Source: an uncultured virus (IMG/VR IMGVR_UViG_3300017766_004071)
Lineage: Duplodnaviria > Heunggongvirae > Uroviricota > Caudoviricetes
Reading direction: 5' to 3' (one strand)
IMG/VR virus record: IMGVR_UViG_3300017766_004071
Coordinates: 55,705-75,704 of that record
DNA length: 20,000 nucleotides
Shown here in pieces: positions 1-13,767 of the stretch (position 1 is its first letter; each line of letters begins with the position of its first letter). A model generated the notes under the pieces. That model saw only the letters and a program-made list of their open reading frames with translations. It searched no databases and was not told the DNA's origin. Made by a program: the position numbers and the translations under genes.

Positions 1-32
1 ATTCCGAACCAAACTTTTTAATAATTTAGTAA

Positions 33-40
33 TATTTATA
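33..40 (+). promoter_or_regulatory. TATTTATA putative phage promoter element upstream of leader 1
   Basis: Same octamer lies 4-14 nt upstream of the start codons at 55, 5165, 11347, 15314 and 18255. Confidence 0.55.
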
Positions 41-54
41 AACAAATAACAAAA

Positions 55-150
55 ATGAGAACATCGATAAACCATATTAGTAATTCAGTACAACCGCAAT
101 TTAAAAATTGTTGGTCAGCGGATTCTTATGGTTCAGGTGGAATCTCGTGA
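55..150 (+). CDS. Leader peptide 1 (31 aa, MRTSINHISNSVQPQFKNCWSADSYGSGGIS), putative attenuator of tRNA block 1
   Basis: ATG after an A-rich leader, TGA at 148-150, terminator follows; codons 4-21 all match block 1 tRNAs. Confidence 0.8.
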   Translation: MRTSINHISNSVQPQFKNCWSADSYGSGGIS

Positions 151-178
151 TGGTAAAAAAGATATTAATTTTTTATAC

Positions 179-211
179 AAACCCTGGACAAAAGACGTTC
201 AGGGTTTTTTT
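179..211 (+). terminator. Intrinsic terminator (attenuator 1)
   Basis: AAACCCTGGAC (179-189) / GTTCAGGGTTT (197-207) stem with T tract; GTTCAGG at 131-137 is an alternative partner for the 5' arm. Confidence 0.85.
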
Positions 212-212
212 G

Positions 213-225
213 TGTTCTTTGACAT
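213..225 (+). promoter_or_regulatory. boxA-like antitermination site
   Basis: TGTTCTTTGACAT resembles rrn boxA (TGCTCTTTAACA); lies just before the first tRNA. Confidence 0.6.
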
Positions 226-241: not shown

Positions 242-314
242 TCCCCCTTGGTATAAAGGTTGATTACATCAGATTTTGAATCTGAGGATGGTGGTTCAAT
301 TCCATCAGGGGGAA
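242..314 (+). tRNA. trnQ: tRNA-Gln(TTG)
   Basis: TCCCCCT/AGGGGGA acceptor; TCAGA-TTTTGAA-TCTGA anticodon arm; T loop TTCAATT. Confidence 0.92.
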
Positions 315-361
315 CAATTTAAAGTGGTGAAATTTGACCACTTTAAAAAAAATATCAAATC

Positions 362-392
362 TTGGAACTAATAGAACTTAAGGTTGGTTCAT
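362..392 (+). promoter_or_regulatory. ECF-sigma-like promoter GGAACT-N17-GTT(C/T)AT
   Basis: Same bipartite motif with identical 17-nt spacing at 364, 1737 and 10082. Confidence 0.6.
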
Positions 393-432
393 ATAGATGA
401 AAGTTGATTATTAAATTTTAAAATAAAAAATT

Positions 433-708
433 ATGGAACTAGTAAGAAAGGGGGAATCGAGATGTTATGTATTCCGTGAAGAAGACATCCAAAAGGTATA
501 TGATACCATCAAAGAAATTGATAATTTTGAATTTGATTATATGCCTAATAATTGGGTAACAGTTTTCAATAGTAAAGACGTACATAAAAACTATATGGTA
601 TATAATGGTAAATTTGACATTGATGTACCTAAACTGATTGACGAGTGTGGTAAAAGGGGTGTAGGTATCATTGTTAGGTCTACTAATATTCAAGATGATT
701 GTTGGTAA
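433..708 (+). CDS. Hypothetical protein (91 aa)
   Basis: ORF with AT-rich leader downstream of the ECF-like motif. Confidence 0.75.
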   Translation: MELVRKGESRCYVFREEDIQKVYDTIKEIDNFEFDYMPNNWVTVFNSKDVHKNYMVYNGKFDIDVPKLIDECGKRGVGIIVRSTNIQDDCW

Positions 709-726
709 AAAAAACTTGATAAAACA

Positions 727-758
727 TTTGGAAATAAGAATATAGTGTCGTAATTTTG
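727..758 (+). promoter_or_regulatory. Bacteroidota primary-sigma promoter (-33 TTTG / -7 TAnnTTTG)
   Basis: TTTG 727-730, TAATTTTG 751-758, 20-nt spacer. Confidence 0.75.
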
Positions 759-762
759 TGGA

Positions 763-828
763 AGAGTAAGGAAAGGTCGTAGGTAGCACTGTCCACAACC
801 AGCCTTAAACGTGGTGGATACTTACTCT
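763..828 (+). ncRNA. Putative small structured RNA
   Basis: AGAGTAAG/CTTACTCT closing stem, internal TGTCCAC/GTGGATA helix, starts right after a promoter, GC-richer than flanks. Confidence 0.45.
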
Positions 829-858
829 AAATTTTTTCAAACTTAAAATATTAATTTT

Positions 859-1050
859 ATGACTAAAAATCAAATTTTAAATCTTGAAGTTGGGGATGTT
901 ATTCCAAATATGTTTGGTAAACTAAAAAAAGTCACAAGAATTTTACATAAAGGAACTGACATTAATGGAAAAATGTTTGTTTATTTTTACCAAGAATTTG
1001 GGGATAGTAGTGAAATGTCTTCAACTTTAAAAGAAGGTAATCAAATATAA
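859..1050 (+). CDS. Hypothetical protein (63 aa)
   Basis: ORF track; AT-rich leader. Confidence 0.7.
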   Translation: MTKNQILNLEVGDVIPNMFGKLKKVTRILHKGTDINGKMFVYFYQEFGDSSEMSSTLKEGNQI

Positions 1051-1055
1051 ATTAT

Positions 1056-1131
1056 GGTGGGATTGCCAAGTTGGTCAAGGCGAATAGCTGAAGATTATTT
1101 AATGTAGGTTCGATTCCTACTCCCACCACCA
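1056..1131 (+). tRNA. trnF: tRNA-Phe(GAA), CCA encoded
   Basis: GGTGGGA/TCCCACC acceptor; AATAG-CTGAAGA-TTATT. Confidence 0.93.
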
Positions 1132-1146
1132 AACAACTATAAGACA

Positions 1147-1317
1147 ATGAGAAGCAAAACCGTAGATAGATTGCTGAAAAGCACACCGAAAGATGTAGAA
1201 ATCTTTGTGGATTGGTATGCCGACCTGGTGGTTCGCATCAATCAGCTATTGCGTGAAAACGACATCAGCAAAAAGGAACTCGCAGAGAAGATGGACAAAA
1301 AACCATCTGAAATTTAG
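1147..1317 (+). pseudogene. Truncated XRE-family HTH protein (56 aa)
   Basis: RINQLLRENDISKKELAEKMDKKPSEI*KW: TAG falls in the recognition helix; GC-richer codon usage than neighbours. Confidence 0.6.
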
Positions 1318-1330
1318 AAATGGATTATAT

Positions 1331-1403
1331 GAGGTATGAACCCAAATGGAGAGGGACAACATTGTGGATGTTGGTTTAGTGAGTTCGATTCTCATCATAC
1401 CTA
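1331..1403 (+). tRNA. trnH: tRNA-His(GTG)
   Basis: G-1 at 1331; AGGTATG/CATACCT acceptor; CAACA-TTGTGGA-TGTTG; A73. Confidence 0.88.
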
Positions 1404-1415
1404 CTTAAACAAATT

Positions 1416-1502
1416 GGAAAGTTAAGCTCGGCGGCCCGAGTCTACGTCTTGAAAACGATAGGTACAATTGTATTGTATGGGGCTCGACACCTCAGCTTTC
1501 CG
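1416..1502 (+). tRNA. trnS: tRNA-Ser(TGA)
   Basis: GGAAAGT/GCTTTCC acceptor, G73, loop CTTGAAA, long variable arm; atypical T loop CTCGACA. Confidence 0.8.
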
Positions 1503-1511
1503 CAAATATTT

Positions 1512-1584
1512 AGTCCCATAGTTCAATGGATTAGAACCGAACAATACGAATGTTCAAATACCCGTTCAAATCGGGTTGGGACTA
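1512..1584 (+). tRNA. trnR: tRNA-Arg(ACG)
   Basis: AGTCCCA/TGGGACT acceptor; GAACA-ATACGAA-TGTTC. Confidence 0.9.
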
Positions 1585-1592
1585 CAAAACTC

Positions 1593-1715
1593 AGTCTTGT
1601 GGCGGAATGGTAGACGCAGCTGTGATAACTTCGCTGGAAGGTGAATCTCCTTTAAAATATTAGCAGGGTCAATCAGTTCTCAGTTATCGTATAGGTTCAA
1701 ATCCTATCAAGACTA
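1593..1715 (+). ncRNA. Leu-type tRNA scaffold with insert, copy A (123 nt)
   Basis: AGTCTTG/CAAGACT acceptor, Leu-like D arm GGCGGAATGGTAGACGC, T arm; no anticodon arm, insert closed by GATAACT/AGTTATC. Confidence 0.75.
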
Positions 1716-1734
1716 CAAAAAAAAATTTTAAATC

Positions 1735-1765
1735 TTGGAACTAAATGGTGAGAGAAGGGGTTTAT
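1735..1765 (+). promoter_or_regulatory. ECF-sigma-like promoter, copy 2
   Basis: GGAACT 1737-1742, N17, GTTTAT. Confidence 0.6.
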
Positions 1766-1787
1766 GTAAATGAATTTAGAAACAATT

Positions 1788-1874
1788 GGAGGATAAAGTA
1801 ATCAGGGTCGTTACCACCGCCTGCTAAGCGAGTGGCACCAAGTATGGTGTGGGGTTCGTGTCCTCTGTCCTCCG
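1788..1874 (+). tRNA. trnS: tRNA-Ser(GCT)
   Basis: GGAGGAT/GTCCTCC acceptor, G73, loop CTGCTAA, variable arm GCACCA/TGGTGT. Confidence 0.85.
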
Positions 1875-1891
1875 CAAAAAAATATTAATAA

Positions 1892-1957
1892 GATTAGAGC
1901 AGTTGAGTTCATAACTCAAAGGAATGCAGACAGTGGAGATGAGCGACCCACCTAATC
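1892..1957 (+). ncRNA. Putative small structured RNA
   Basis: GATTAG/CTAATC closing stem; hairpins TTGAGTT/AACTCAA and GTGG/CCAC. Confidence 0.4.
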
Positions 1958-1989
1958 ATTTTAAATGAATAAAAAAATATTCCAAAGTG

Positions 1990-2021
1990 TTTGGAAATTA
2001 GAAAATGAAATCGTAATTTTG
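1990..2021 (+). promoter_or_regulatory. Bacteroidota primary-sigma promoter
   Basis: TTTG 1990-1993, TAATTTTG 2014-2021; directly upstream of scaffold B. Confidence 0.75.
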
Positions 2022-2033
2022 TGATACAATAAT

Positions 2034-2181
2034 AGTCCTGTGGCGGAATTGGTAGACGCTATTAAGATAACTAAGGCAGTATATTTTCTCGGAGTAAATA
2101 TGCAAAGTCATAGTGTTGTACAGATTATCCGAGTGACGAGTACATGCTTAATTTTTACAGGTTCGAATCCTGTCAGGACTA
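2034..2181 (+). ncRNA. Leu-type tRNA scaffold with insert, copy B (148 nt)
   Basis: AGTCCTG/CAGGACT acceptor, D and T arms; insert closed by ATTAAG/CTTAAT with two hairpins. Confidence 0.75.
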
Positions 2182-2204
2182 CAAAAAATTAAAAAATAAA
2201 AGTT

Positions 2205-2381
2205 ATGGACACACATTATTGGGTAAGATTTGAGATTAGAATTGAAACTATCAACAATCAATTAACTTCTGATGAACAAAAAGAAATCTTTGACTATATA
2301 AAATCAAGAATTGACGGTAGAGATGACATAGATAGACCTAAAAAGTTGGATTGTTGTTTTGTCAATATGAGGAAATTTTAG
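2205..2381 (+). CDS. Hypothetical protein (58 aa)
   Basis: Read manually (MDTHYWVRFEIRIET...); fills the gap between scaffolds B and C. Confidence 0.6.
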   Translation: MDTHYWVRFEIRIETINNQLTSDEQKEIFDYIKSRIDGRDDIDRPKKLDCCFVNMRKF

Positions 2382-2394
2382 ATAAGTTAAATCA

Positions 2395-2524
2395 AGTCCT
2401 GTGGCGAAAGCTAAGGGTAGAGTGAAGATTGAATGTTCAGACACTCCTTAATACTAGGATTGGAGCGAAAGGTCTAACATAAACAATATGTAGCTTAATA
2501 CGGGTTCGAATCCTGTCAGGACTA
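2395..2524 (+). ncRNA. tRNA scaffold with insert, copy C (130 nt, D arm degenerate)
   Basis: AGTCCTG TGGCG ... GGTTCGAATCCTGT CAGGACT A; insert closed by AAGCTA/TAGCTT. Confidence 0.7.
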
Positions 2525-2551
2525 TTTTTTAAACTATAAAATTAAAATATA

Positions 2552-2764
2552 ATGAACGCAAGAAAAGAAATACTTGGAAAAATAGAAGAGTTTGAAAAAC
2601 GTGTGAAGTATTGGAAAGATAGACAAATAAATTTTAAATGGACAGAAGAAACTATAAAAGAGGGTGACCCATTATTTGTAATGTGTCAAGATTTTGAACA
2701 TTCTTTTAAAGAAAAAATATTACTCTTGCAATGGGTATTAGATTTAATTAAAGATGAAAATTAA
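2552..2764 (+). CDS. Hypothetical protein (70 aa)
   Basis: ORF track. Confidence 0.7.
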   Translation: MNARKEILGKIEEFEKRVKYWKDRQINFKWTEETIKEGDPLFVMCQDFEHSFKEKILLLQWVLDLIKDEN

Positions 2765-2775
2765 AACAAACTAAT

Positions 2776-2952
2776 ATGATAAATAAAATTTCAGCACTTT
2801 TTGCACTTTTAATCGGTATAATGTATTTTTCTTTATTTGCATACGATATAGAATATGACCGAGATTTAATGACTTGGTTTTGGCTATTATTTTCCGAAAT
2901 TTGGTTTATGATTAGTTTACGTTTTTGGATTTTATATGATAAAAATAATTAA
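2776..2952 (+). CDS. Small membrane protein (58 aa)
   Basis: Read manually; two hydrophobic segments. Confidence 0.55.
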   Translation: MINKISALFALLIGIMYFSLFAYDIEYDRDLMTWFWLLFSEIWFMISLRFWILYDKNN

Positions 2953-2955
2953 AAA

Positions 2956-3105
2956 ATGTTAGTAATTATTGGTCTTTTATTTTTGATAATTGGAATCTTA
3001 TTCTTAATTTTGTCTTACAAAACAAAGAACTCAGACTTGTTTATAGTTGGAATTATATTTCTAATTGTTCTTTTGTTTGGATTTATATATGGTTTAATAA
3101 TATAG
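2956..3105 (+). CDS. Small membrane protein (49 aa)
   Basis: Read manually; MLVIIGLLFLIIGILFLILSYK..., two hydrophobic segments. Confidence 0.55.
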   Translation: MLVIIGLLFLIIGILFLILSYKTKNSDLFIVGIIFLIVLLFGFIYGLII

Positions 3106-3178
3106 AGTAGTAGCGCAATTGGTAGCGCACTCGGTTTGGGACCGAGAGATTTTGCAGGTTCGAGTCCTGTCTACTCTA
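3104..3178 (+). tRNA. trnP: tRNA-Pro(TGG)
   Basis: AGAGTAG/CTACTCT acceptor; CTCGG-TTTGGGA-CCGAG. Confidence 0.92.
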
Positions 3179-3186
3179 CAAGATTT

Positions 3187-3263
3187 AGGAAAGTATCCCC
3201 TCAGCCTTATACGCCGTAGAAAGGGTAACTGGTAACATATGGGTTCGAACCCCATCTTTCCTA
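3187..3263 (+). tRNA. Non-canonical tRNA-Ile(TAT)-like RNA without a normal D arm
   Basis: AGGAAAG/CTTTCCT acceptor, A73, normal T arm, 7-nt loop CTTATAC; D-loop-like AACTGGTA lies 3' of the anticodon arm. Confidence 0.65.
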
Positions 3264-3276
3264 CAAAATTATAATA

Positions 3277-3353
3277 CGGCAAGTATACCCTCCGTCTGAT
3301 ACACGGTAGAAAGGTTAATTGGTTACATATAGGTTCGATTCCTATCTTGCCGA
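3277..3353 (+). tRNA. Non-canonical tRNA-Ile(GAT)-like RNA without a normal D arm
   Basis: CGGCAAG/CTTGCCG acceptor, A73, CCGT-CTGATAC-ACGG; same architecture and length (77 nt) as 3187-3263. Confidence 0.65.
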
Positions 3354-3362
3354 CAACAATAA

Positions 3363-3436
3363 GTCTCAGTAACTCAGTGGTTTAGAGTTCTCGACTGTTA
3401 ATCGAGTGGTCGTAGGTTCGAATCCTACCTGGGACG
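3363..3436 (+). tRNA. trnN: tRNA-Asn(GTT)
   Basis: GTCTCAG/CTGGGAC acceptor, G73; CTCGA-CTGTTAA-TCGAG. Confidence 0.94.
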
Positions 3437-3452
3437 CAAATTTTAATAAATT

Positions 3453-3680
3453 ATGGTTAATGTAAAAATTGGTGAATTTAAGGTTGGTGATAAGTTGTTT
3501 ATTGATTATAGTGAAGATAATCCAAACAATAAACACATCGAAATTAGAGCAATTGTGGATATGGAGGTGGTGATTTATTTGGATGACAAAAATAACTACC
3601 ATATGGAACCAATTCATTACTTCAATGTGTTATGTAGATGTCACTCACTTAAAAAAATAACAAATGAAACGGACAATTAG
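3453..3680 (+). CDS. Hypothetical protein (75 aa)
   Basis: ORF track; FKVGDK SH3/KOW-like start. Confidence 0.7.
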   Translation: MVNVKIGEFKVGDKLFIDYSEDNPNNKHIEIRAIVDMEVVIYLDDKNNYHMEPIHYFNVLCRCHSLKKITNETDN

Positions 3681-3819
3681 AAAACCAAGTTCTGCAAAGT
3701 TTTATGAAATGCTTAGAAATAAGTACAACAACTACATTAAGAAACAAGAAAATGAAATGGAAGATTCTACAAATTAGATTCCAACCTAAAAAATTTAATT
3801 AACAATATATAATTTTCAT

Positions 3820-4329
3820 ATGAAAAAAGAGTTTTTATTTAATGATAACATTATTGATTTTGAATTTGACGAAGTAATAGATAAAAAAATAAATGTTAAG
3901 GTATTTCACTATTTCAATAATAATCTTTTATTTGAAAAAATTGATGATAGAATAATTTGTCTTAAAGGTATTGGTAAATTATTCTTTCAAGAAGGATTCC
4001 CAATTTCATTATCTATTTCAAAATTAAAAGAACAAGGGGTTGAGGTTAGTATATTACACGTTGCTGATGAATGTTTAAAAAATGGGTGGTCACCAATCAC
4101 AACATATAATAAATTAAAATCTGACTTTGAAGAAGATATTGACAAAGAAAATCATTATGATTTACATTTATTAAAAAAATTTTGTGAATCAAATTATGAA
4201 GACCAAAGAGAAATGATATTTGAATATCTGTTTAAATGCAAAACTGATGATGTTAGAAATAAAAAAAATGAAAATCCAATAAATTGGTTACAATCACTTG
4301 TAACTAGTGGGGCTAAAAATAAACTTTAA
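3820..4329 (+). CDS. Hypothetical protein with possible AlaRS helical-domain-like motif
   Basis: GKLFFQEGFPISLSISKLKEQGVEV resembles AlaRS FKLYDTYGFPxDLT...ERGxxVD. Confidence 0.55.
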   Translation: MKKEFLFNDNIIDFEFDEVIDKKINVKVFHYFNNNLLFEKIDDRIICLKGIGKLFFQEGFPISLSISKLKEQGVEVSILHVADECLKNGWSPITTYNKLKSDFEEDIDKENHYDLHLLKKFCESNYEDQREMIFEYLFKCKTDDVRNKKNENPINWLQSLVTSGAKNKL

Positions 4330-4338
4330 CAAGAAAAT

Positions 4339-4413
4339 GACCCTGTAGCTTAGCTGGTTTAAAGCACAATACTTTTAATATTGGGAGCGGGAGTTCGAAT
4401 CTCCCCAGGGTCA
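4339..4413 (+). tRNA. trnK: tRNA-Lys(TTT)
   Basis: GACCCTG/CAGGGTC acceptor; CAATA-CTTTTAA-TATTG. Confidence 0.94.
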
Positions 4414-4422
4414 CAACACAAT

Positions 4423-4507
4423 GTCCTTATGGTGTAATGGTTAAACATCCCACTCTTACAAAGTGGAGACGAGAAGTATAATCCTAGTTCGAATCTAGGT
4501 AAGGACA
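4423..4507 (+). tRNA. trnV: tRNA-Val(TAC) with 16-nt variable region
   Basis: GTCCTTA/TAAGGAC acceptor; CCACT-CTTACAA-AGTGG. Confidence 0.88.
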
Positions 4508-4535
4508 CATTAAATGATTTTTAAAATATAAAAAA

Positions 4536-4784
4536 ATGAAAAAAATATTATTTCTTGGTTTGATATCTGTATTATTCCTTAGTTGCAAAAGAGAAGCTAA
4601 AGAAGAAATAGAAACAGATAATACTAATTATAGTGTTGAACTTCTATTTGAAGTTGATGGATGTAAAGTCTATCGATTTTTGGATGGTGAATTCCATTAT
4701 TTCACAACTTGTAATGGTTCTGTAACTCATAAAAGTAATGAAAAAAACTCCAAAGATTTGGAAATACAAACCGTTGTGAAATAA
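4536..4784 (+). CDS. Lipoprotein, DUF4884-like
   Basis: Signal peptide with lipobox FLSC; VELLFEVDGCKVYRFxDG..HYFT motif. Confidence 0.7.
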   Translation: MKKILFLGLISVLFLSCKREAKEEIETDNTNYSVELLFEVDGCKVYRFLDGEFHYFTTCNGSVTHKSNEKNSKDLEIQTVVK

Positions 4785-4790
4785 AGATTT

Positions 4791-4852
4791 GAACAATTAA
4801 GGGACCGAGCCTGCCTACAATTTCGGTGTGAGGTGCTAGTAGGTAATTGTTC
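4791..4852 (+). ncRNA. Putative pseudoknotted small RNA
   Basis: GAACAATTA/TAATTGTTC closing stem; GCCTAC/GTAGGT hairpin whose loop TCGGT pairs with upstream ACCGA. Confidence 0.45.
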
Positions 4853-4856
4853 TTTA

Positions 4857-5011
4857 TGTTATAATAGTACCACGAGGCATCCCATAAGAACTGCTCACTG
4901 CTGTGGTCTTGTTGCTTGTAAACGAATAGCCCAAGGTATAAGTTAGGAAGCTTAACTCAACCTATCCCCCACTGACGAGTGGGGTGAAGTTGGGGGATTA
5001 AAAAAGAAACA
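4857..5011 (+). ncRNA. Putative structured RNA (~155 nt)
   Basis: GC-rich non-coding stretch with ACCACG/TGTGGT, CCCCAC/GTGGGG and ATCCCCC/GGGGGAT helices. Confidence 0.4.
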
Positions 5012-5015
5012 ATAG

Positions 5016-5101
5016 GGTCGGGTGGCCGAGTTGGTTAAGGCACTAGTCTGCAAAACTATCGAATGAAAAATTCATCGTGGGTTCAAATCCCTCCCCGACC
5101 T
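5016..5101 (+). tRNA. trnC: tRNA-Cys(GCA) with long variable arm
   Basis: GGTCGGG/CCCGACC acceptor, U73, loop CTGCAAA, variable hairpin ATGAA/TTCAT. Confidence 0.9.
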
Positions 5102-5164
5102 CAAAAAAAAAGTTCAGTTAGTTATTTTTACTCATTTTGTTGATATTTATATATATATATATAT

Positions 5165-5914
5165 ATGAAATGGAATGATAACGATATTGAAAAATTAATT
5201 GATTTGGTTAATCAAGGATTAAAACCAAATAGTATTGCTGAAATTTTTGGGGTTACGTATAAAACGATAACTAATAAAATGTTTAGATTGGGTTTACAAG
5301 TAGTTTATACAACAAATAAAACTTGTAAAAATTGTGGAAATACATTTGAGTCTTATTTAAGTAAAAACAAATTATTTTGTAATTCATCTTGTTCAACAAC
5401 GTTTAATAATAAAAAACGTAAACATAGTGAAGAAACTAAAAATAAAATATCAAAAACATTAAAAAGTAAACCAACTAAACCAACTAAGCCTACTAAACCT
5501 AAAGTTGGTAAAATAAAAACTTGTAGGATTTGTAATAATAAAGTTATTGAAAAGTACAAAATTGTTTGTACTAATTGTAGGTTAGAGTATTATCAATATT
5601 ATAGACCTTCTTGTACTTTTCAATTTAATGTAAAGGATTATCCACAAGAATTTGATTTAATTTTAATTGAACAATATGGATGGTATTCTCCAACAAATAA
5701 AAAAAATAATTTGGTTGGAGTCACAAAAGACCATAAATATTCAGTGATGGAAGGTTATAGAAATAAAATAGACCCTAATATTTTATCTCATCCAGCAAAT
5801 TGTGAATTACTTTTATTTTCGGATAATTCGTCTAAAAATGGTAAATCGTCTTTAACATTAACCGAATTGCTTGAAAATATTGAAATTTGGAATAAGAAAT
5901 ACGGAAATATTTAA
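5165..5914 (+). CDS. Putative homing endonuclease (HTH, Zn ribbons, NUMOD3-like, HNH-like C terminus)
   Basis: CxxC pairs, KHSEETKNKISKT, TKDH...HPANCELL..NSSK; free-standing between tRNAs. Confidence 0.7.
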   Translation: MKWNDNDIEKLIDLVNQGLKPNSIAEIFGVTYKTITNKMFRLGLQVVYTTNKTCKNCGNTFESYLSKNKLFCNSSCSTTFNNKKRKHSEETKNKISKTLKSKPTKPTKPTKPKVGKIKTCRICNNKVIEKYKIVCTNCRLEYYQYYRPSCTFQFNVKDYPQEFDLILIEQYGWYSPTNKKNNLVGVTKDHKYSVMEGYRNKIDPNILSHPANCELLLFSDNSSKNGKSSLTLTELLENIEIWNKKYGNI

Positions 5915-5942
5915 AAGTTATTATTATCTTTACAAAACATAT

Positions 5943-6017
5943 GGGAATGTAGCTCAATTGGATTAGAGTAGTGGATTCCAGACCCACAGGTTATAGGTTC
6001 GAGTCCTATCGTTCTCG
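5943..6017 (+). tRNA. trnW: tRNA-Trp(CCA)
   Basis: GGGAATG/CGTTCTC acceptor, G73; GTGGA-TTCCAGA-CCCAC. Confidence 0.9.
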
Positions 6018-6048
6018 CAAATTTTATCAACAATTTAAAATACTTATT

Positions 6049-9104: not shown

Positions 9105-9177
9105 TTTTTTTTGTAACCAACTTGACCTTTTGTATTATATCGTTATATTTAATAAAAAAATAGTAAAAACTTCACAA

Positions 9178-9249
9178 ATGAAACACAATCTCTATATGGA
9201 CTTAACGACTGGAGCTGAGGGTAGAAATCCTCGGATGGAGATGGTATAA
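9178..9249 (+). CDS. Leader peptide 2 (23 aa, MKHNLYMDLTTGAEGRNPRMEMV), putative attenuator of tRNA block 2
   Basis: ATG 9178, TAA 9247-9249, terminator follows; codons 5-16 all match block 2 tRNAs. Confidence 0.8.
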   Translation: MKHNLYMDLTTGAEGRNPRMEMV

Positions 9250-9276: not shown

Positions 9277-9313
9277 AAATCCATCTTCCTAAAAAAAAGA
9301 TGGATTTTTTTTT
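9277..9313 (+). terminator. Intrinsic terminator (attenuator 2)
   Basis: AAATCCATCTT (9277-9287) / AAGATGGATTT (9297-9307) with T tract; GGAGATGG at 9237-9244 is an alternative partner. Confidence 0.85.
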
Positions 9314-9886: not shown

Positions 9887-9960
9887 GGGCTATTGGTGTA
9901 GTGGTCGAACATGCCACCCTGTCACGGTGGAGAACAGGGGTTCAAATCCCCTATAGCTCG
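9887..9960 (+). tRNA. trnD: tRNA-Asp(GTC)
   Basis: GGGCTAT/ATAGCTC acceptor, G73; CCACC-CTGTCAC-GGTGG. Confidence 0.94.
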
Positions 9961-9973
9961 CAATACTTTAATT

Positions 9974-10063
9974 AATCGGTTGGTGTAAGTGGAAATGAAT
10001 ACCACCTTGGGTAGCAACCTATTTTTAGAATGGGGGATGTAGGTTCGAATCCTACACTGGTTA
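9974..10063 (+). ncRNA. tRNA-like RNA with expanded anticodon region
   Basis: AATCGGT/ACTGGTT acceptor, perfect T arm GTAGG-TTCGAAT-CCTAC, inserted TGGGT-AGCA-ACCTA hairpin. Confidence 0.6.
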
Positions 10064-10079
10064 AAAAAAGTTTTAAAAG

Positions 10080-10110
10080 TTGGAACTAAATGATATGAAG
10101 GTTGGTTTAT
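10080..10110 (+). promoter_or_regulatory. ECF-sigma-like promoter, copy 3
   Basis: GGAACT 10082-10087, N17, GTTTAT. Confidence 0.6.
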
Positions 10111-10136
10111 AATAATGTAACTTAAAAAAATAGATT

Positions 10137-10283
10137 ATGACAAACTTTATGATAAATTTTATTATTCTTGCTATTTTTATAATGCTTTTGGGTTTTATTG
10201 GTAACTATATCATAAAAAAATATCCAGATTCTTGGGTAGCAAAATGGTGGGATGATATGACTGATATTGGTCATTGGTGGTAA
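10137..10283 (+). CDS. Small membrane protein (48 aa)
   Basis: Read manually; one TM segment then a Trp-rich tail. Confidence 0.55.
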   Translation: MTNFMINFIILAIFIMLLGFIGNYIIKKYPDSWVAKWWDDMTDIGHWW

Positions 10284-10292
10284 ATTAAAATA

Positions 10293-10462
10293 ATATCTAT
10301 GTCACGAGATTAAGATGTGACTTACGTTCTAAGGAGTTTACTTATTGTCAATTAGGGCGGACGAAGGCAACATAAGTTATATTATGGTGACTTGATATTC
10401 ACCATAACGAATACAAGATATCAAAAAGAGAAGTGGAGAATCACTTATTCAAAACTTCTCTT
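10293..10462 (+). ncRNA. Putative multi-hairpin RNA
   Basis: ATATCT/AGATAT closing; GTCAC/GTGAC, ACTTAT/ATAAGT, TTATGGTGA/TCACCATAA, then AAGAGAAGT/ACTTCTCTT. Confidence 0.45.
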
Positions 10463-10469
10463 AATTTTT

Positions 10470-10553
10470 GCCTAGGTGGTGTAATGGTAGCCACGCAAGA
10501 CTTAAAATCTTGTGACCAGTAAGGTCGTGCGGGTTCGAGTCCCGCCCTGGGTA
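10470..10553 (+). tRNA. trnL: tRNA-Leu(TAA)
   Basis: GCCTAGG/CCTGGGT acceptor; CAAGA-CTTAAAA-TCTTG; long variable arm. Confidence 0.94.
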
Positions 10554-10569
10554 CAAAAAAATAAAAAAC

Positions 10570-10758
10570 ATGATATATTTTAAAATTTACTTTACACTAC
10601 TTCTTATCACAATCATAGTTGCTGGAGTTACTGGGTCGCTTATGAATAGCGATACTAAAAGAAGTGATTTATGGTTCAAGATTTCAAACACTTGTTGGAT
10701 AGCAACATTAGTTATGGTTATTGCAGGCGTATTAACTTCTGTATGGATTCTACATTAG
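10570..10758 (+). CDS. Small membrane protein (62 aa)
   Basis: Two hydrophobic segments. Confidence 0.7.
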   Translation: MIYFKIYFTLLLITIIVAGVTGSLMNSDTKRSDLWFKISNTCWIATLVMVIAGVLTSVWILH

Positions 10759-10795
10759 AATCTTGTCGGGACTACAAAAAAAAGTTTAAAAAAGA

Positions 10796-10827
10796 TTTGG
10801 AATTAAGAAAATCAAATCGTAATTTTG
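10796..10827 (+). promoter_or_regulatory. Bacteroidota primary-sigma promoter
   Basis: TTTG 10796-10799, TAATTTTG 10820-10827; directly upstream of scaffold E; near-identical to 1990-2021. Confidence 0.75.
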
Positions 10828-10836
10828 TGAGACAAT

Positions 10837-10929
10837 AGTCTTGTGGCGGAATGGAAGACGCTCGCTTCAAGGTGCGGTTAGTCAACGAAATGTAAAGCTA
10901 ACGTACAGGTTCGAATCCTGTCAGGACTA
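10837..10929 (+). ncRNA. Leu-type tRNA scaffold, copy E (93 nt; degenerate Leu-CAA-like arm)
   Basis: AGTCTTG/CAGGACT acceptor; TCGC-TTCAAGGT-GCGG 8-nt loop; enlarged variable arm. Confidence 0.7.
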
Positions 10930-10933
10930 CAAA

Positions 10934-11037
10934 TGTGTTGTTCCTTTGAGAAAGGAAATATAAAGATGAGTGACATTACTTGAATTATGGAATAGTAACA
11001 TAATCGTACACTACAACACAGAGGATTTCTCATCCTC
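10934..11037 (+). ncRNA. Putative pseudoknotted RNA
   Basis: TGTGTTGT/ACAACACA closing stem; H-type knot TTACT/AGTAA + ATTATG/CATAAT; 3' hairpin GAGGAT/ATCCTC. Confidence 0.5.
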
Positions 11038-11051
11038 AAATTTTTAAAAAC

Positions 11052-11124
11052 GCACCATTCGACAAGGGGTCTAAGTCACCTCCCTTTCACGGAGGAGTCA
11101 CGGGTTCGAATCCCGTATGGTGTA
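11052..11124 (+). tRNA. trnE: tRNA-Glu(TTC)
   Basis: GCACCAT/ATGGTGT acceptor; CCTCC-CTTTCAC-GGAGG. Confidence 0.94.
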
Positions 11125-11176
11125 CAAATCTCAGAAGTAATTAATCTGGGGCTGAGAGGTTCGAAACTCACGGAAA

Positions 11177-11276
11177 TGATTATGGTGTAGGCGCACGGAA
11201 AGATAAAGTATGAGAATGGTAAGTACCCATTAAAGAAATTGACATCAGGATTAAGGTTCGAATTCTTATTAATCAA
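11177..11276 (+). ncRNA. Degenerate tRNA-like RNA with expanded core
   Basis: TGATTA/TAATCA acceptor, TAAGG-TTCGAAT-TCTTA T arm, ACA 3' end; no anticodon arm. Confidence 0.45.
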
Positions 11277-11285
11277 CAAACATTA

Positions 11286-11326
11286 TGTGTATAGGATTTT
11301 TGGGTTGTGTATAGGATTTTCGGGTT
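11286..11326 (+). repeat. Tandem 20-bp duplication upstream of HNH gene
   Basis: TGTGTATAGGATTTT(T/C)GGGT x2. Confidence 0.8.
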
Positions 11327-11346
11327 TTTTGTGATATTTATATAAT

Positions 11347-11928
11347 ATGGAAGAATTAAATAGACATCAAAAAGCTGCATTGGTAAGTGGTATTAAGCGT
11401 AGACAGAAATCACTACAAGAATACTACGAAAATCCTAATATTTGTAGGTGTTGCAATAAACCAATTATGGTTGGTGAAAAACAAAAAGTTCGTGAGGTTA
11501 GAAGAAAAGTTTTTTGTGACCATAGTTGTTCTGCAACTTTTAATAATCAACAAAGAGAAATTAAAGAACCGATTAAAAAAAATAAAGAACCAAGACCTAA
11601 AAAGGAAAATAAAGAATCTAAACCTAAAAAGGAAAAATTTGAATTTATTTTAGGTTTAACTAAAAAAGATTTGTTTGAAAAACACGAAATTTATTATAGA
11701 TTTAGAGCAGTAATTAGGAAACATGCACATTATATTTTCAACAAACATCATAAAGACCAAAAATGTAAGGTTTGTGGATATAATACTCACGTAGAAGTTT
11801 GTCATATAAAATCAGTTTCATCTTTCAGTGATGATACTCTAATAATTGAGATAAATTCTATAGATAATTTAGTTGGGTTATGCCCTAATCATCATTGGGA
11901 ATTTGACAATGGTAAAATAAAATTATAA
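11347..11928 (+). CDS. HNH endonuclease
   Basis: CKVCG..VEVCHIK..NLVGLCPNHHWEFD; N-terminal Zn ribbon. Confidence 0.85.
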   Translation: MEELNRHQKAALVSGIKRRQKSLQEYYENPNICRCCNKPIMVGEKQKVREVRRKVFCDHSCSATFNNQQREIKEPIKKNKEPRPKKENKESKPKKEKFEFILGLTKKDLFEKHEIYYRFRAVIRKHAHYIFNKHHKDQKCKVCGYNTHVEVCHIKSVSSFSDDTLIIEINSIDNLVGLCPNHHWEFDNGKIKL

Positions 11929-11935
11929 CACATCA

Positions 11936-12021
11936 CGCAAGGTGGACGAGTGGTCAATGTCAGGGGTCTCATAAGCCTCTTCTGCGAAAGTGGAACTTCG
12001 GTTCGAATCCGAACTTTGCGT
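11936..12021 (+). tRNA. trnM: tRNA-CAT (probably Met) with long variable arm
   Basis: CGCAAGG/CTTTGCG acceptor; GGGGT-CTCATAA-GCCTC; TTCTGC-GAAA-GTGGAA arm; U73. Confidence 0.82.
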
Positions 12022-12034
12022 CAAATTATTAAAA

Positions 12035-12120
12035 GGGTGTCTATCCAAATTGGTGAAGGAAGCTGTCTGTAAAACAGTTGCTATATGCTAAACTTGGGGG
12101 TTCGAATCCCTCGGCACCCA
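12035..12120 (+). tRNA. trnY: tRNA-Tyr(GTA)
   Basis: GGGTGTC/GGCACCC acceptor; GCTGT-CTGTAAA-ACAGT. Confidence 0.9.
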
Positions 12121-12124
12121 CAAA

Positions 12125-12328
12125 AGAAATGAAACCTTACATAGGATGGATTAGCACCATTGAAAGGGAACTTGGCTCTCATAGGGTCGCAACCTAAATC
12201 GAGAGTAATAATGACCCAAGTTGCTATGTAGGAGACCCTGCTCTACCGTGCACGGTATCAGGTGATGGGGAACAAACCATCATTAAACGTCTTGCCCATA
12301 TAATGCTTATGGAAGGACTTTCATTTCT
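12125..12328 (+). ncRNA. Putative large structured RNA (204 nt)
   Basis: AGAAATGAAA/TTTCATTTCT closing; nested CTTACATAG/CTATGTAGG, AACTTGG/CCAAGTT, CTCTC/GAGAG; fills the Tyr-Gly gap exactly. Confidence 0.6.
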
Positions 12329-12333
12329 AATTT

Positions 12334-12408
12334 GCAGTAATAGCTCAATGGTAGAGTTCTTGTCTTCCAAACAAGATGTTGCGAGTTCGAGTCTCGCTTA
12401 CTGCTCCA
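12334..12408 (+). tRNA. trnG: tRNA-Gly(TCC), CCA encoded
   Basis: GCAGTAA/TTACTGC acceptor, U73; CTTGT-CTTCCAA-ACAAG. Confidence 0.94.
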
Positions 12409-12424
12409 AATTTAAAAATTCATT

Positions 12425-12637
12425 ATGAATCAGTCCGAATTTAGAAATCTTAGAACTGGGGATAAAATCCATATTAAGTCTCGTGATGGTTTATATACCT
12501 TCTTAAAAAAAGACTTTAGAACTGGTGAAATTCATATAACCTGTAAAATATGGCAATATGAAGAAAATCCGATAAGAGTAACAAGTTTTGATGATTTCAA
12601 ATGTTTGGCTGGTGGTTTATGGAGAAAAATTATGTAA
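12425..12637 (+). CDS. Hypothetical protein (70 aa)
   Basis: ORF track. Confidence 0.7.
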   Translation: MNQSEFRNLRTGDKIHIKSRDGLYTFLKKDFRTGEIHITCKIWQYEENPIRVTSFDDFKCLAGGLWRKIM

Positions 12638-12710
12638 TAGGAGAAAGTAAGTCGGTTGGTGTATAGCTTCCTTACGTCTAAAATTTAAGCACGATTACAT
12701 AATACAAAAA

Positions 12711-12784
12711 GGGGGATTAGCTCAGCTGGCTAGAGCACTTGATTTGCATTCAAGAGGTCATCGGTTCGACTCCGATATCCTCCA
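12711..12784 (+). tRNA. trnA: tRNA-Ala(TGC)
   Basis: GGGGGAT/ATCCTCC acceptor with G3:U70; CTTGA-TTTGCAT-TCAAG. Confidence 0.95.
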
Positions 12785-12816
12785 CTGAAAAATAAACATT
12801 GTTTTAAATTTAATTT

Positions 12817-13422: not shown

Positions 13423-13670
13423 AAAAAATATTTTGGTTTTCAATTTTAATCACTATCTTTGTATCCTGTAACAAACACCCCACGATAGAACCTGGTGATA
13501 TTGTTAAGAAGTGTGTAATTGATACGATGTATATTACAGAATCTCCATCCACAATTGAATTTGGTAAGAGATATAATTATAAAACCGATTGTGATGAATT
13601 GATAATGACAAGAAGAAGTGATGTGTATGAAATAGGGGATACAATAACCTACGTTTATAAAAGAAGATAA
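13419..13670 (+). CDS. Small lipoprotein (83 aa)
   Basis: Start at ATG 13419 (ATGA overlap with the upstream stop); lipobox FVSC. Confidence 0.7.
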   Translation: MKKIFWFSILITIFVSCNKHPTIEPGDIVKKCVIDTMYITESPSTIEFGKRYNYKTDCDELIMTRRSDVYEIGDTITYVYKRR

Positions 13671-13676
13671 TTATTT

Positions 13677-13762
13677 GCCGTTTTCGCATAGTGGTTGATT
13701 GCACTGGATTTGTAACCCAGTTCCGTTAGGACACGTCAGTTCGAATCTGACAAACGGCTCCA
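13677..13762 (+). tRNA. trnT: tRNA-Thr(TGT) with variable arm, CCA encoded
   Basis: GCCGTTT/AAACGGC acceptor; CTGGA-TTTGTAA-CCCAG; TCC-GTTA-GGA arm. Confidence 0.9.
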
Positions 13763-13767
13763 AAAAT

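Follow-up and report, generated by a model that had tools for sequence, protein, structure and literature searches.

A putative leader-peptide attenuator ahead of a tRNA gene block in an uncultured phage

How phages time and dose the tRNAs that they encode themselves is largely unknown. The question is posed directly by the DNA considered here, a 20,000-nucleotide stretch of an uncultured caudoviricete genome (the window, in what follows), which opens with a short leader ORF, a predicted intrinsic terminator, and tRNA-Gln at 242, an order that would place a terminator between a leader and the genes to be regulated, as in an attenuator. Can the decoding of this leader decide whether the tRNA genes behind it are transcribed? 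An earlier note had read the leader as a roll-call of the tRNA block and the unit as an attenuator. The features that bear on this are collected in Table 1.

Table 1. Coordinates of the two leader units and their tRNA blocks (position 1 is the first base of the window)
Feature	Position	Strand	Details
5' untranslated leader	1..54	+	A-rich directly ahead of the ATG, as read from the sequence
Weak -7-like box	22-29	+	TAATTTAG, in the 5' untranslated leader; possible promoter role
Leader ORF 1	55..150	+	31 codons, stop TGA 148-150; reads MRTSINHISNSVQPQFKNCWSADSYGSGGIS
Putative sensor run, leader 1	64..117	+	18 codons (codons 4-21), block-1 amino acids only; 11 of 12 decoding classes, CGN absent
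Predicted antiterminator strand, leader 1	131..137	+	GTTCAGG, copy of the terminator 3' arm; pairs with 183-189
Intrinsic terminator 1	179..211	+	Stem 179-189/197-207, loop 190-196, T run 205-211
tRNA block 1	242..6018	+	Gln, Phe, His, Arg-ACG, Ser-GCT, Pro, Ile-UAU, Ile-GAU, Asn, Lys, Val, Cys, Trp
Promoter-like motifs within block 1	728-758, 1991-2021, 2983-3012	+	Strict TTG-N18-21-TAnnTTTG
tRNA-Ile-UAU	3187-3263	+	Infernal 28.6 bits, just below the 29-bit cut-off; D-arm-less
tRNA-Ile-GAU	3277-3353	+	Infernal 31.1 bits; D-arm-less
Promoter-like site, leader 2	9122..9151	+	TTG-N19-TATATTTA (also TTGACC-16-TATATT); conserved in all aligned relatives
Leader ORF 2	9178..9249	+	Reads MKHNLYMDLTTGAEGRNPRMEMV
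Leader 2 run	9190-9225 (codons 5-16)	+	12 codons, block-2 amino acids only; 9 of 9 classes other than Gln
Hairpin inside leader 2	9215..9234	+	GAGGGU/AUCCUC; conserved
Predicted antiterminator strand, leader 2	9237..9244	+	GGAGATGG, pairs with 9281-9288
Terminator, leader 2	9277..9313	+	Stem 9277-9287/9297-9307, then T run
Promoter-like motifs between leader 2 terminator and tRNA-Asp	9324-9353, 9822-9852	+	Strict TTG-N18-21-TAnnTTTG
tRNA block 2	9887..16591	+	Asp, Gln, Leu x3, Glu, Met, Tyr, Gly, Ala, Thr, Arg-UCU; three Leu-scaffold elements

When the sequence was re-read, codons 4-21 of leader 1 proved to be exactly those that the earlier note had listed. ARAGORN called the tRNAs for Gln, Phe, His, Arg-ACG, Ser-GCT, Pro, Asn, Lys, Val, Cys, and Trp in block 1, and Infernal found two Ile tRNAs lacking a D-arm beyond this set; all 18 amino acids of the run therefore belong, as claimed, to block 1, and none is exclusive to block 2. 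Block 1 further contains small ORFs and three tRNA-like elements of Leu-scaffold type, which carry inserts. The statement that the run takes in both Ser boxes and both Ile types of the array stands for Ile, for which both tRNAs were found, and is unconfirmed for Ser: a Ser-UGA tRNA was called in block 1 neither by ARAGORN (with or without introns) nor by Infernal, and the associated count of 13 of 14 anticodons was not reproduced. Because no tool called this tRNA, the codons TCG, TCA, and TCA are left without a confirmed cognate, which the other 15 of the 18 possess. A possible candidate for Ser-UGA is the element at 2396-2524, which carries a TTGAA motif, although it fits no accepted tRNA model. 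Arg-ACG is encoded in block 1, yet the run contains no CGN codon, just as had been reported.

A Pfam search with the 31-residue peptide of leader 1 returned zero family matches. Of 80 related loci, 17 retain the reading frame, in four diverged versions with synonymous changes; a peptide core, SxQPQFxNCW, is conserved among relatives. As judged from sequence, a short ORF with its own start codon lies upstream of the genes that it would regulate, with its frame retained, as in an attenuator.

How surprising is such a run? With genome codon usage giving a probability of 0.53 for a block-1 codon, a run of at least 18 in 30 codons has P = 7.6e-5. The empirical control consisted of the 293 small ATG ORFs of 20-45 codons on both strands of the 75.7-kb record. 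This control came out less favorably, with leader 1 ranking only second for its block-1 run; the top place goes to a spurious ORF over tRNA-Cys (run of 19), and block-1 runs of at least 14 occur in six of the 293, because block-1 amino acids have AT-rich codons. By itself, the leader 1 run is only moderately unusual, and it gains its weight from a second leader, from a test of partitions, and from the relatives.

The second leader precedes block 2, and its run of block-2 codons is the longest among the same 293 small ORFs. Together, the 18- and 12-codon runs use all 20 amino acids with no overlap, divided exactly as the tRNA genes are; of 167,960 partitions of the decoding classes, one yields both runs, and it is the real tRNA split only. 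A Fisher test on the whole ORFs of the two leaders gives p = 0.0095. The terminator of leader 2 was listed on the minus strand by the scan because its hairpin is symmetric. The hairpin inside this leader reads GAAGAU/AUCUUC in clade B, where one pair has changed in a compensatory manner and a G-U has become an A-U. Beyond block 2, a cyclic-phosphate-processing receiver domain adjoins an HD-domain ORF at 17109-18115, a hint of RNA repair in the region.

Among relatives of the same family, clades B and C share ~80% nucleotide identity with the window over the entire leader 1 intergenic region, and in the related clades the leader sequence changes, yet stays within the amino-acid set of its own block. 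Across four versions of leader 1, 78 of 80 codons at positions 2-21 fall in block-1 classes, and across five versions of the leader 2 run, 59 of 60 fall in block-2 classes, a variant (L092) having Ile within the run. The clade B leader 2 differs at seven of 12 run positions, with changes that are non-conservative and all inside the block-2 set. The agreement is not complete, in that clade B (L102) retains a full leader 1 with only five tRNAs found in its block 1, and in the clade C leader 10 of the 26 run codons are for Asn, Ser, and Val, amino acids for which the block yielded no tRNA. Further afield, a megablast search of 1-6000 against 50,697 phage records gave no match. The DUF2828/DUF7788 protein encoded upstream matched 710 phage records by tblastn, all below 60% identity and, among the matches listed, at about 49-52%.

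Four other phage lineages (G006, G008, G010, and G011) supplied 11 further leader-terminator-tRNA units with differing tRNA mixes, the leader being defined, by a rule set after the ORFs had been seen, as the longest ATG ORF ending at most 90 nt before the terminator. In the 12 leaders, that of the window included, own-block runs extend from 3 to 21 codons, and the leaders cover 87 of the 91 block classes. That leaders in other phages should track their own arrays was the comparative check set by the earlier note, and the result went its way: when block labels were shuffled, the observed run sum of 147 compared with a largest shuffled value of 106 (0/20,000), and coverage and enrichment were likewise unmatched in 20,000 shuffles. 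A thirteenth leader (G011d), spotted by inspecting a block where the terminator scan had given no unit, carries the run LQRQLQLQLL ahead of Arg-ACG, Leu, Leu, Gln, and Leu. The long conserved region upstream of leader 1, which extends from about -250 to 0 and contains two TTCAGCAA boxes, was aligned with the region before G011d; only the motif and a closing stem are common to the two.

The correspondence extends below the level of the amino acid. Among the Ser, Arg, Leu, and Ile codons up to the run ends (n = 74), 51 belong to a box that a tRNA from the leader's own block decodes; the remainder comprises six ATA beside a CAT tRNA, which are ambiguous, five in the other box, and 12 without a block tRNA. 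Agreement with the anticodons is thus seen for Arg CGN versus AGR, Ser AGY versus UCN, Leu CUN versus UUR, and Ile AUA versus AUY. Read from sequence, the codons that would be regulatory match what the regulated genes supply, as an attenuator calls for. There are exceptions. In G008b, slightly more of the 30 leader codons fit the next block (12) than the leader's own block (10), and codons without a block tRNA occur N-terminally in G008b, G010c, and G011c and as Asn in G006. In two related jumbo phages (G007 and G009), the scan for terminators and leaders found no unit before the tRNAs.

A leader of this kind would act through the RNA that follows it. The stem of terminator 1 has 11 pairs (five G-C) and closes a loop of 7 bases, with a T run reaching 211; relatives retain this stem in the form CCCTGAAC/GTTCAGGG. 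The earlier note had picked out GTTCAGG as a possible antiterminator strand, and its description was borne out: the motif duplicates 197-203, is complementary to CCTGGAC (183-189) with one G-U, and starts 13 nt past codon 21. Across the versions of leader 1, GGTTnnGGG is retained at the nucleotide level, the encoded residue varying as S/W/S/L. Folds in which a modeled ribosome masks the RNA predict that 131-137 pairs with 183-189 when the ribosome lies upstream and that this pairing is lost past codon 21-23. In comparison with dinucleotide shuffles, upstream pairing of the terminator 5' arm was matched or exceeded in 82, 29, 19, 31, and 11 of 150; such pairing is about equally likely in shuffled sequence, and thermodynamics alone therefore gives a dedicated antiterminator no support. 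Folded on its own, 100-196 has z = 0.24 and lacks the 131-137:183-189 pairing. The window folds into a long hairpin at 70-133 of the protective 1:2 type (z = -5.25 for 40-215); this hairpin is not kept in all clades, its conservation not being established, and free-RNA folds of L021, L016, and leader 2 show the antiterminator in its place, so the clades disagree on whether an antiterminator forms without a ribosome. A T-box riboswitch was considered and rejected: at the gathering score, Rfam matched only tRNA in the whole window, with no T-box or other family, and a search to E = 10 on 661 bases around leader 1 gave no T-box and no credible hit, the best scoring 16-21 bits against cut-offs of 40-114.

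Ribosome-masked folds give the terminator 5' arm an upstream pairing of 0.5-0.95 as long as the stall lies no farther than the run end, with a fall just after it. The fall comes within two codons of the run end in nine of 12 leaders (8e-5 under a uniform null); three of the 12 miss this boundary, and G011d has no fall at all. In 13 of 13 leaders, the terminator arm begins 25-38 nt after the stop codon. These models suggest that the end of the run lies near the point at which a ribosome, if stalled, would start to mask the predicted antiterminator strand.

Taken together, these observations support the earlier attenuator interpretation. We assign a probability of roughly 0.7 to the reading that 55-211 is a ribosome-mediated (leader-peptide) transcription attenuator gating a phage tRNA block, in which the leader would be translated, ribosomes would stall on it, the RNA would adopt alternative folds, and read-through would be regulated. 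The leader is written in the codons of the tRNA genes behind it, and the phage therefore probably makes this tRNA set only when ribosomes run short of its members. In essence, host RNA polymerase would start upstream, copy the 31-codon leader, and reach the terminator 27 nt before tRNA-Gln, the first ~20 codons of the leader calling on every kind of tRNA in the block behind. With prompt decoding, the ribosome would reach the leader end and mask GTTCAGG at 131-137, the terminator hairpin would form, and transcription would stop. With one slow codon, the ribosome would stall upstream, leaving the strand free to pair with 183-189, and polymerase would enter the tRNA genes. As tRNAs accumulated, fast reading of the leader would bring shut-off, a negative feedback on supply specific to the block. 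The second unit (9122-9313) would work likewise for block 2.

The clearest competitor accepts the sensor and disputes its output. The leader might sense decoding by the block tRNAs and yet not act by stall-induced antitermination, the polarity or the step being another: a stall could promote termination, leave the transcript open to attack by Rho or RNases, or alter processing of the first tRNA. The match between codons and tRNAs demands a decoding sensor and leaves its output unfixed, and both an antiterminator no better than shuffles and the disagreement among free-RNA folds are in keeping with such a scheme. We nevertheless judge it unlikely. The placement of the run ends in nine of 12 leaders makes sense only if upstream stalls free the strand, and therefore counts against it; strong intrinsic terminators at a fixed 25-38 nt past the stop codon suit the classical scheme; and positive feedback, in which more tRNA gave more read-through, would not be homeostatic.

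It is rather improbable that the leader is a general sensor of translation capacity, resembling that of ermC, with its block-matched composition a secondary refinement or a historical trace. Such a sensor would accommodate the leader codons that have no block tRNA and the survival of the clade B leader after loss of most block-1 tRNAs, and any stall within the zone should act alike. Separate leaders and blocks with disjoint amino-acid sets, however, have been redistributed together among lineages to a degree met in none of the 20,000 label shuffles, and matching at the level of the box would be superfluous for it. Already disfavored, and in our estimation highly improbable, is a small functional protein encoded by 55-150 with a terminator of its own, the tRNAs having their own promoters and the likeness being due to chance or AT bias, a view that can draw on the long block-1 runs of other small ORFs (six of 293, one with 19), the conserved peptide core, and promoter-like motifs within blocks, but that has to contend with the single successful partition, the top rank of leader 2, whose composition rather than sequence is kept between clades, the eleven further units that track their own blocks, and a peptide without a Pfam family.

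The attenuator reading has to be set beside other possible inputs to transcription. A promoter-like site better than that in the 5' untranslated leader, TTG-N20-TAATTTTA, lies upstream of the window, ~135-166 nt before position 1, and is tentatively assigned to this unit; between terminator 1 and tRNA-Gln, no canonical promoter was found. The strict motif TTG-N18-21-TAnnTTTG occurs seven times on the + strand, against 1.03 expected. Because such motifs also lie inside the blocks, the attenuator is unlikely to be the sole input, and parts of the tRNA blocks can probably be transcribed while bypassing it. A scan for sigma-70-type sites was uninformative (119 against 106 expected), and TAnnTTTG alone occurs 38 times, with 35 expected. 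RNA data consisted of assembled contigs from four metatranscriptomes. One contig, from run X15, spans 1-211 and stops at the final T of the terminator, a weak hint only; another, from run X18, begins 94 nt before the window and reaches position 60. Positions 212-513, tRNA-Gln included, are uncovered in all four runs, contig gaps being uninformative on read-through.

A broader proposition, on which we consider the odds to be even, is that Bacteroidota jumbo phages, and possibly others, carry modular tRNA blocks, each behind its own leader that calls the roll box by box and each transcribed only on shortfall, such that the loss of a single tRNA, including by host anticodon nuclease cleavage, is reported and answered with a replacement set. 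If this is true, the unit would be at once a supply regulator and a sensor in conflict over tRNAs. An attenuator before tRNA genes would in any case let decoding feed back directly on tRNA synthesis, following a logic familiar from amino-acid operons. The leaders are short, modular, and readable, and their codon lists predict the tRNAs supplied and the shortages answered; they could serve as natural sensors of single tRNA species, an idea testable by reporters or cell-free systems. For annotation, it follows that small ORFs before terminators heading phage tRNA arrays should not be entered as "hypothetical proteins."

The mechanism proposed is of a known kind; a leader-peptide attenuator ahead of tRNA genes was not found described in full-text literature searches, nor were tRNA arrays as its target. 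The classical examples are the leader peptides of amino-acid operons, trpL, hisL, leuL, and pheL, and the multivalent thr and ilvGMEDA leaders. Common to these and to the present unit are a short leader with regulatory codons, an intrinsic terminator ahead of the regulated genes, and a leader 3' strand able to pair with the terminator 5' arm (here predicted); the selection of the fold by ribosome position is proposed here as well, and the multivalent leaders sense more than one amino acid, as this one would. The differences are equally plain. The targets are tRNA genes rather than biosynthetic enzymes, up to 11-12 decoding classes appear about once or twice each where the leaders of amino-acid operons repeat one to three, the units are phage-borne, with several per genome and one per tRNA block, and a conserved 1:2 protector hairpin is not established.

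Closer in subject are the leaders of aminoacyl-tRNA synthetase genes, as in pheST, where a leader peptide stands ahead of such genes. Like the proposed unit, they report on the supply of charged tRNA and regulate a part of the decoding machinery. In bacilli, leaders with His codons precede hisS/hisZ paralogs (PMC2965389). Each synthetase leader attends to one amino acid and has a charging enzyme as its target, and all are cellular, whereas here the targets are tRNAs and the setting is viral. T-boxes work without translation, binding uncharged tRNA directly by means of a specifier codon and the T-box sequence, and share with the unit proposed here a terminator/antiterminator switch that answers to tRNA status. 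Leaders of the ermC/cat type are mentioned as sensing a general slowdown of translation (PMC2965389). There, as proposed here, a ribosome stalled on a short leader refolds the RNA downstream, but the ribosome is drug-bound, the peptide motif is fixed, and it is mostly the translation of the next gene that is controlled. In the phage leaders, composition is matched instead to specific tRNAs, and the structure at stake is a transcription terminator.

Each of the two tRNA groups in this stretch of phage DNA is preceded by a small ORF whose codons largely name the decoding classes of the tRNAs behind it (its own block). The stretch makes up the final 20 kb of a 75.7-kb record with a CheckV completeness of 27% and a G+C content of 30%, and its tRNAs (24 according to ARAGORN, 22 according to Rfam) form two groups with 3.9 kb of protein genes between them. 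Codons 4-21 of leader 1 (64-117) exactly match the list in the earlier note, and the strand that it described as copying one terminator arm and complementing the other is seen in the sequence. Its count of 13 covered anticodons out of 14 could not be reproduced: neither tool applied to the window (ARAGORN, Rfam/Infernal) called a Ser-UGA tRNA, and 15 of the 18 run codons therefore have a confirmed block-1 tRNA. The observation itself is real. The leader 1 terminator is one of two terminator-like sites found in a scan of the + strand of the 20 kb. One metatranscriptome contig (run X15) spans 1-211, ending at the terminator's last T, which is a weak hint of termination because contigs cannot show transcript ends; another (run X18) starts 94 nt before the window and stops at position 60.

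Leaders, terminators, promoter-like sites and tRNAs of the window, with leader versions and units from related phages
Feature	Position	Strand	Details
DUF2828/DUF7788 gene	3' end 366 nt upstream of window		
Leader ORF 1	55-150	+	31 codons, MRTSINHISNSVQPQFKNCWSADSYGSGGIS; preceded by A-rich stretch
Antiterminator strand candidate GTTCAGG	131-137	+	copy of 197-203; able to pair with CCTGGAC 183-189
Terminator 1 hairpin	179-207, then Ts to 211	+	11 pairs (5 G-C), 7-base loop
tRNA block 1	242-6018	+	Gln, Phe, His, Arg-ACG, Ser-GCT, Pro, Asn, Lys, Val, Cys, Trp; plus two Ile by Infernal
tRNA-Gln, first of block 1	start 242	+	ARAGORN
Ile tRNA, anticodon UAU	3187-3263	+	D-arm-less, loop CUUAUAC, Infernal 28.6 bits, just under cut-off
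Ile tRNA, anticodon GAU	3277-3353	+	D-arm-less, anticodon loop CUGAUAC, Infernal 31.1 bits
TTG-N18-21-TAnnTTTG within block 1	728-758, 1991-2021, 2983-3012	+	
Leu-scaffold tRNA-like elements (six)	1593-1716, 2034-2182, 2396-2524, 10837-10930, 14586-14732, 14833-14946		
Promoter-like site of leader 2	9122-9151	+	upstream of ORF 9178-9249
Leader ORF 2	9178-9249	+	MKHNLYMDLTTGAEGRNPRMEMV; upstream of block 2
Terminator of leader 2	9277-9313	+	after leader ORF 2
TTG-N18-21-TAnnTTTG between leader 2 terminator and tRNA-Asp	9324-9353, 9822-9852	+	
tRNA block 2	9887-16591	+	Asp, Gln, Leu x3, Glu, Met, Tyr, Gly, Ala, Thr, Arg-UCU
Leader 1 version, clade A			same as window
Leader 1 version, clade B			MKRSNKHNVISIQPQFSNCWIGNIYGLGIVS
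Leader 1 version, clade B'			clade B peptide except ...IGTIYGSGIVS
Leader 1 version, clade C			MKNFFKHINISVQPQFSNCWSKPSVCNGWGNSIEL
Leader example			MRTSSTLSLTSLQHLTRS then ENSTEV; block His, Ser, Ser, Arg-UCU, Gln, Gln, Thr, Leu...
Leader example			...NININMNFDWAIKFAGNDYVD then S...; block Phe, Trp, Ile, Val, Ala, Asn, Asp, Lys, Tyr, Met, Gly
Leader example			...VNIIKSIKHISVK then N...; block Lys, Val, Ile, Ser, His
Leader example			...LLERLER..; block Leu, Glu, Arg-UCU, Met
Thirteenth unit, G011d			MRTLSLQRQLQLQLL then TKEPG...; block Arg-ACG, Leu, Leu, Gln, Leu

Could the run of leader 1 have arisen by chance? Block-1 classes account for 0.53 of the codons in 84 long ORFs of the record, and the comparison with genome codon usage proposed in the earlier note makes a run of at least 18 in 30 codons improbable (7.6e-5). 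A control set of 293 small ORFs (ATG start, 20-45 codons, all frames, both strands) is less kind: the run ranks second, behind one of 19 in a spurious ORF over tRNA-Cys, and block-1 runs of at least 14 occur in six of these ORFs, as the codons for block-1 amino acids are rich in A and T. On its own, leader 1 would be no more than suggestive. The second leader settles whether chance is exceeded. Its codons 5-16 (LYMDLTTGAEGR, using AGA for Arg) belong to block-2 classes only and cover all nine of those besides Gln, and this run of 12 is the longest for block 2 among the same small ORFs (runner-up 9). The two runs draw on disjoint amino-acid sets that jointly comprise all twenty; with Arg divided by box and Gln counted in both blocks, a single one of 167,960 partitions of 20 classes (11 vs 9) yields both, and it is the real tRNA split. 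A 2x2 table of the whole ORFs (20/8 vs 7/15) gives a Fisher p of 0.0095.

Leader 1 is present, in four versions, in 17 of 80 related loci retrieved with the protein encoded upstream of it. By manual count, 78 of the 80 codons at positions 2-21 of these versions fall in block-1 classes, the exceptions (AGA and ACA) both being in the window; clade B has a CGC that the window's leader 1 lacks. All five related records that were searched contain leader 2. In its clade B version, MKNYLYTGETLRAEDLNLRNGRV, seven of the 12 run positions are changed non-conservatively (M to T, D to G, L to E, T to L, G to R, G to D and R to L), all within block 2, and over five distinct versions 59 of 60 run codons are in block-2 classes, the exception being an Ile in locus L092. 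Because residues change yet stay in the block-2 set, composition is conserved even where sequence diverges. Two clades count against, or limit, a role of the leader in sensing these tRNAs: clade B retains leader 1, yet the search of its block 1 gave just five tRNAs; in clade C, Asn, Ser and Val tRNAs were not found in the block, leaving 10 of 26 run codons unmatched. A tRNA-Gly(UCC)-like gene whose T arm is aberrant (GTTGGGGCAGTACCAAC; L102 13043-13113 and L103 9209-9279, the latter on the reverse strand) occurs in both clades; it scores 46 and 40.7 bits with Rfam and is not called by ARAGORN.

Similar units occur in other phage lineages. In G006 (locus L022), a promoter of Bacteroidota type and a terminator accompany the leader, MTTNTNIPTFNFTQVMFQVLPF followed by GTYLGYISKSRIV, behind which the array reads Gln, CAT, Thr, Phe, Pro, Thr, Val, Leu, Leu. 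Three block-2 amino acids of the window (Thr, Met and Leu) occur in array and leader alike. A survey of five large related records, in which tRNAs were listed, arrays taken and terminators scanned, gave nine terminators in G008, G010 and G011, each downstream of a small ORF whose stop codon precedes it by 21-38 nt; six end a few to ~25 nt before a tRNA and three lie ~0.5 kb upstream of the next one. The terminator and leader scan found no such units before the tRNAs of G007 and G009, which likewise limits the sensing role. The leader was taken as the longest ATG ORF ending at most 90 nt before the terminator, a rule set after the peptides were seen, and G011d was spotted by inspecting the region before a block lacking a scanned terminator. 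In G008b it is the opening stretch that matches the following block. With the window counted in, 12 leaders have own-block runs of 3-21 codons and together cover 87 of 91 block classes. None of 20,000 shuffles of the block labels attains the observed run sum (147; shuffle mean 49, maximum 106), coverage or enrichment, and the covariation of leader codons with array content anticipated in the earlier note is thus borne out across lineages. Given the second leader and these lineages, the link of leaders to tRNA blocks is statistically secure. In distant relatives, tmRNA-like genes (GGGGCTGA... to ...GGTTCGAATCCCACCAGCTCCA, tag frame ending ALAA as read by eye) lie just upstream of tRNA arrays (L038 ~11030-11450, L057 ~11470-11880, L059 ~9290-9720).

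The choice of synonymous codons bears on what is being selected. Among 74 Ser, Arg, Leu and Ile codons from codon 2 to the run ends, 51 are in a box decoded by an own-block tRNA, six are ATA beside a CAT tRNA of ambiguous identity, five are in the other box (four of them in the window's leader 1) and 12, chiefly ahead of the run, have no own-block tRNA. As an example of the match, CGT/CGC is confined to leaders with Arg-ACG in their block, and AGA goes with Arg-UCU. Because codons match the boxes of own-block tRNAs, decoding rather than peptide chemistry is argued to be the constraint on leaders.

A modelled ribosome was taken to cover 12-16 nt past the first base of the A-site codon, and the RNA beyond it was folded up to the base preceding the terminator 3' arm. 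For stalls at codons 2-21 of the window's leader 1, the 5' arm pairs upstream with a probability of 0.64-0.95, against at most 0.3 from codon 22-23. The switch falls at codon 21/22 in clades B and B', at codons 23-25 in clade C (run end at codon 27), and at the run end in all four versions of leader 2 (codon 16/17) and in G006 (codons 21-22). With a fixed rule applied to 13 leaders, one of which shows no fall in arm pairing, the half-plateau fall lies within two codons of the run end in nine of 12 (8e-5 under a uniform null). The stop codon is 25-38 nt upstream of the terminator arm in all 13, a GGTTnnGGG strand is conserved in nucleotides while its middle codon varies (S, W, S, L), and a hairpin within leader 2 has one compensatory pair between clades. 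These observations fit the classical leader-peptide scheme: a ribosome stalled within the run would leave the antiterminator strand free, and one at the leader end would cover it, so that the terminator would form. We infer such an attenuator as the best-supported reading, with a probability of about 0.7. Dinucleotide shuffles of the upstream part attain the observed arm pairing in 82, 29, 19, 31 and 11 of 150 cases; the G+C-rich arm thus pairs about as often in shuffles, and it is therefore the position of the partner strand alone, not stability, that counts as evidence. A protector hairpin at 70-133 in the window fold (z = -5.25 for 40-215) is inconsistent across clades, and read-through may be the default in the absence of translation.

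The motif TTG-N18-21-TAnnTTTG, which we take to be the Bacteroidota promoter consensus, occurs seven times on the + strand of the window against 1.03 expected. Because such motifs occur inside the blocks and past the leader 2 terminator, attenuators are unlikely to be the sole input to the tRNA blocks. A repeated promoter-like unit, TTGGAAnTnAGAAnAT...TCGTAATTTTG, is found at 728-758, 1991-2021 and 10797-10827; two copies directly precede Leu-scaffold elements, and that at 728-758 precedes a hairpin and T run (~765-840) that may be a small RNA. The promoter type, together with the C-terminal type IX secretion sorting domain of ORF 6372-7709 (Por_Secre_tail, 49 bits), points to a Bacteroidota host. 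The stretch occurs in sequencing runs with freshwater or lake metagenome labels.

Several other features surround the tRNAs. The two Ile tRNAs have four bases in place of the D arm and an 18-base insert in the variable region; in the close relatives L007 and L009, their place is taken by canonical CAT and GAT tRNAs. A Leu-type acceptor stem (AGTCYTG...CARGACT) and D arm are common to the Leu-scaffold elements, whose anticodon or variable region carries ~10-70 inserted bases (10837-10930 has an 8-base anticodon loop according to ARAGORN); with three per block, they have no bearing on the amino-acid split. Val 4423-4508, Cys 5016-5102, Gln 9973-10064, Met 11936-12022, Thr 13677-13762 and Arg 15160-15248 are, at 86-92 bases, unusually long for tRNAs with normally short variable arms. 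HNH ORFs lie among the block-2 tRNAs (11347-11928, HNH_2, 35.6 bits; 15314-15919, HNH_3, 19.5 bits, below cut-off), and the neighbouring ORFs 17109-17531 (cREC_REC, cyclic-phosphate-processing receiver domain, 83 bits) and 17534-18115 (HD, 21.8 bits, below cut-off) may belong to an RNA repair system beside the arrays. The intergenic region from ~250 nt upstream of the window to 54 (L001 1250-1555) is ~80% identical between clades, vs 71-78% for the flanking protein, and includes a GGATAG...CTATCC stem along with two TTCAGCAA boxes; in another phage, leader G011d also has a similar motif and a closing stem upstream of it. A fragment resembling a T arm and an acceptor stem, GGTTCAAACCCTGTCACCC, lies ~300-240 nt before the window (L001 ~1200-1260); it is limited to the closest relatives and may be a tRNA remnant.

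A T-box identity was ruled out by an Rfam search of the window and the leader surroundings. In those parts of the literature reached by a full-text search, no description was found of attenuator control of tRNA genes of this type. The proposed phage unit would have the same working principle as the leader-peptide attenuators of amino-acid operons, the nearest known systems being the multivalent thr and ilv leaders and the leaders that precede synthetase genes. It differs from these in that its target is tRNA genes, in that its leader names many classes once or twice each, and in that a single phage carries several block-specific units.
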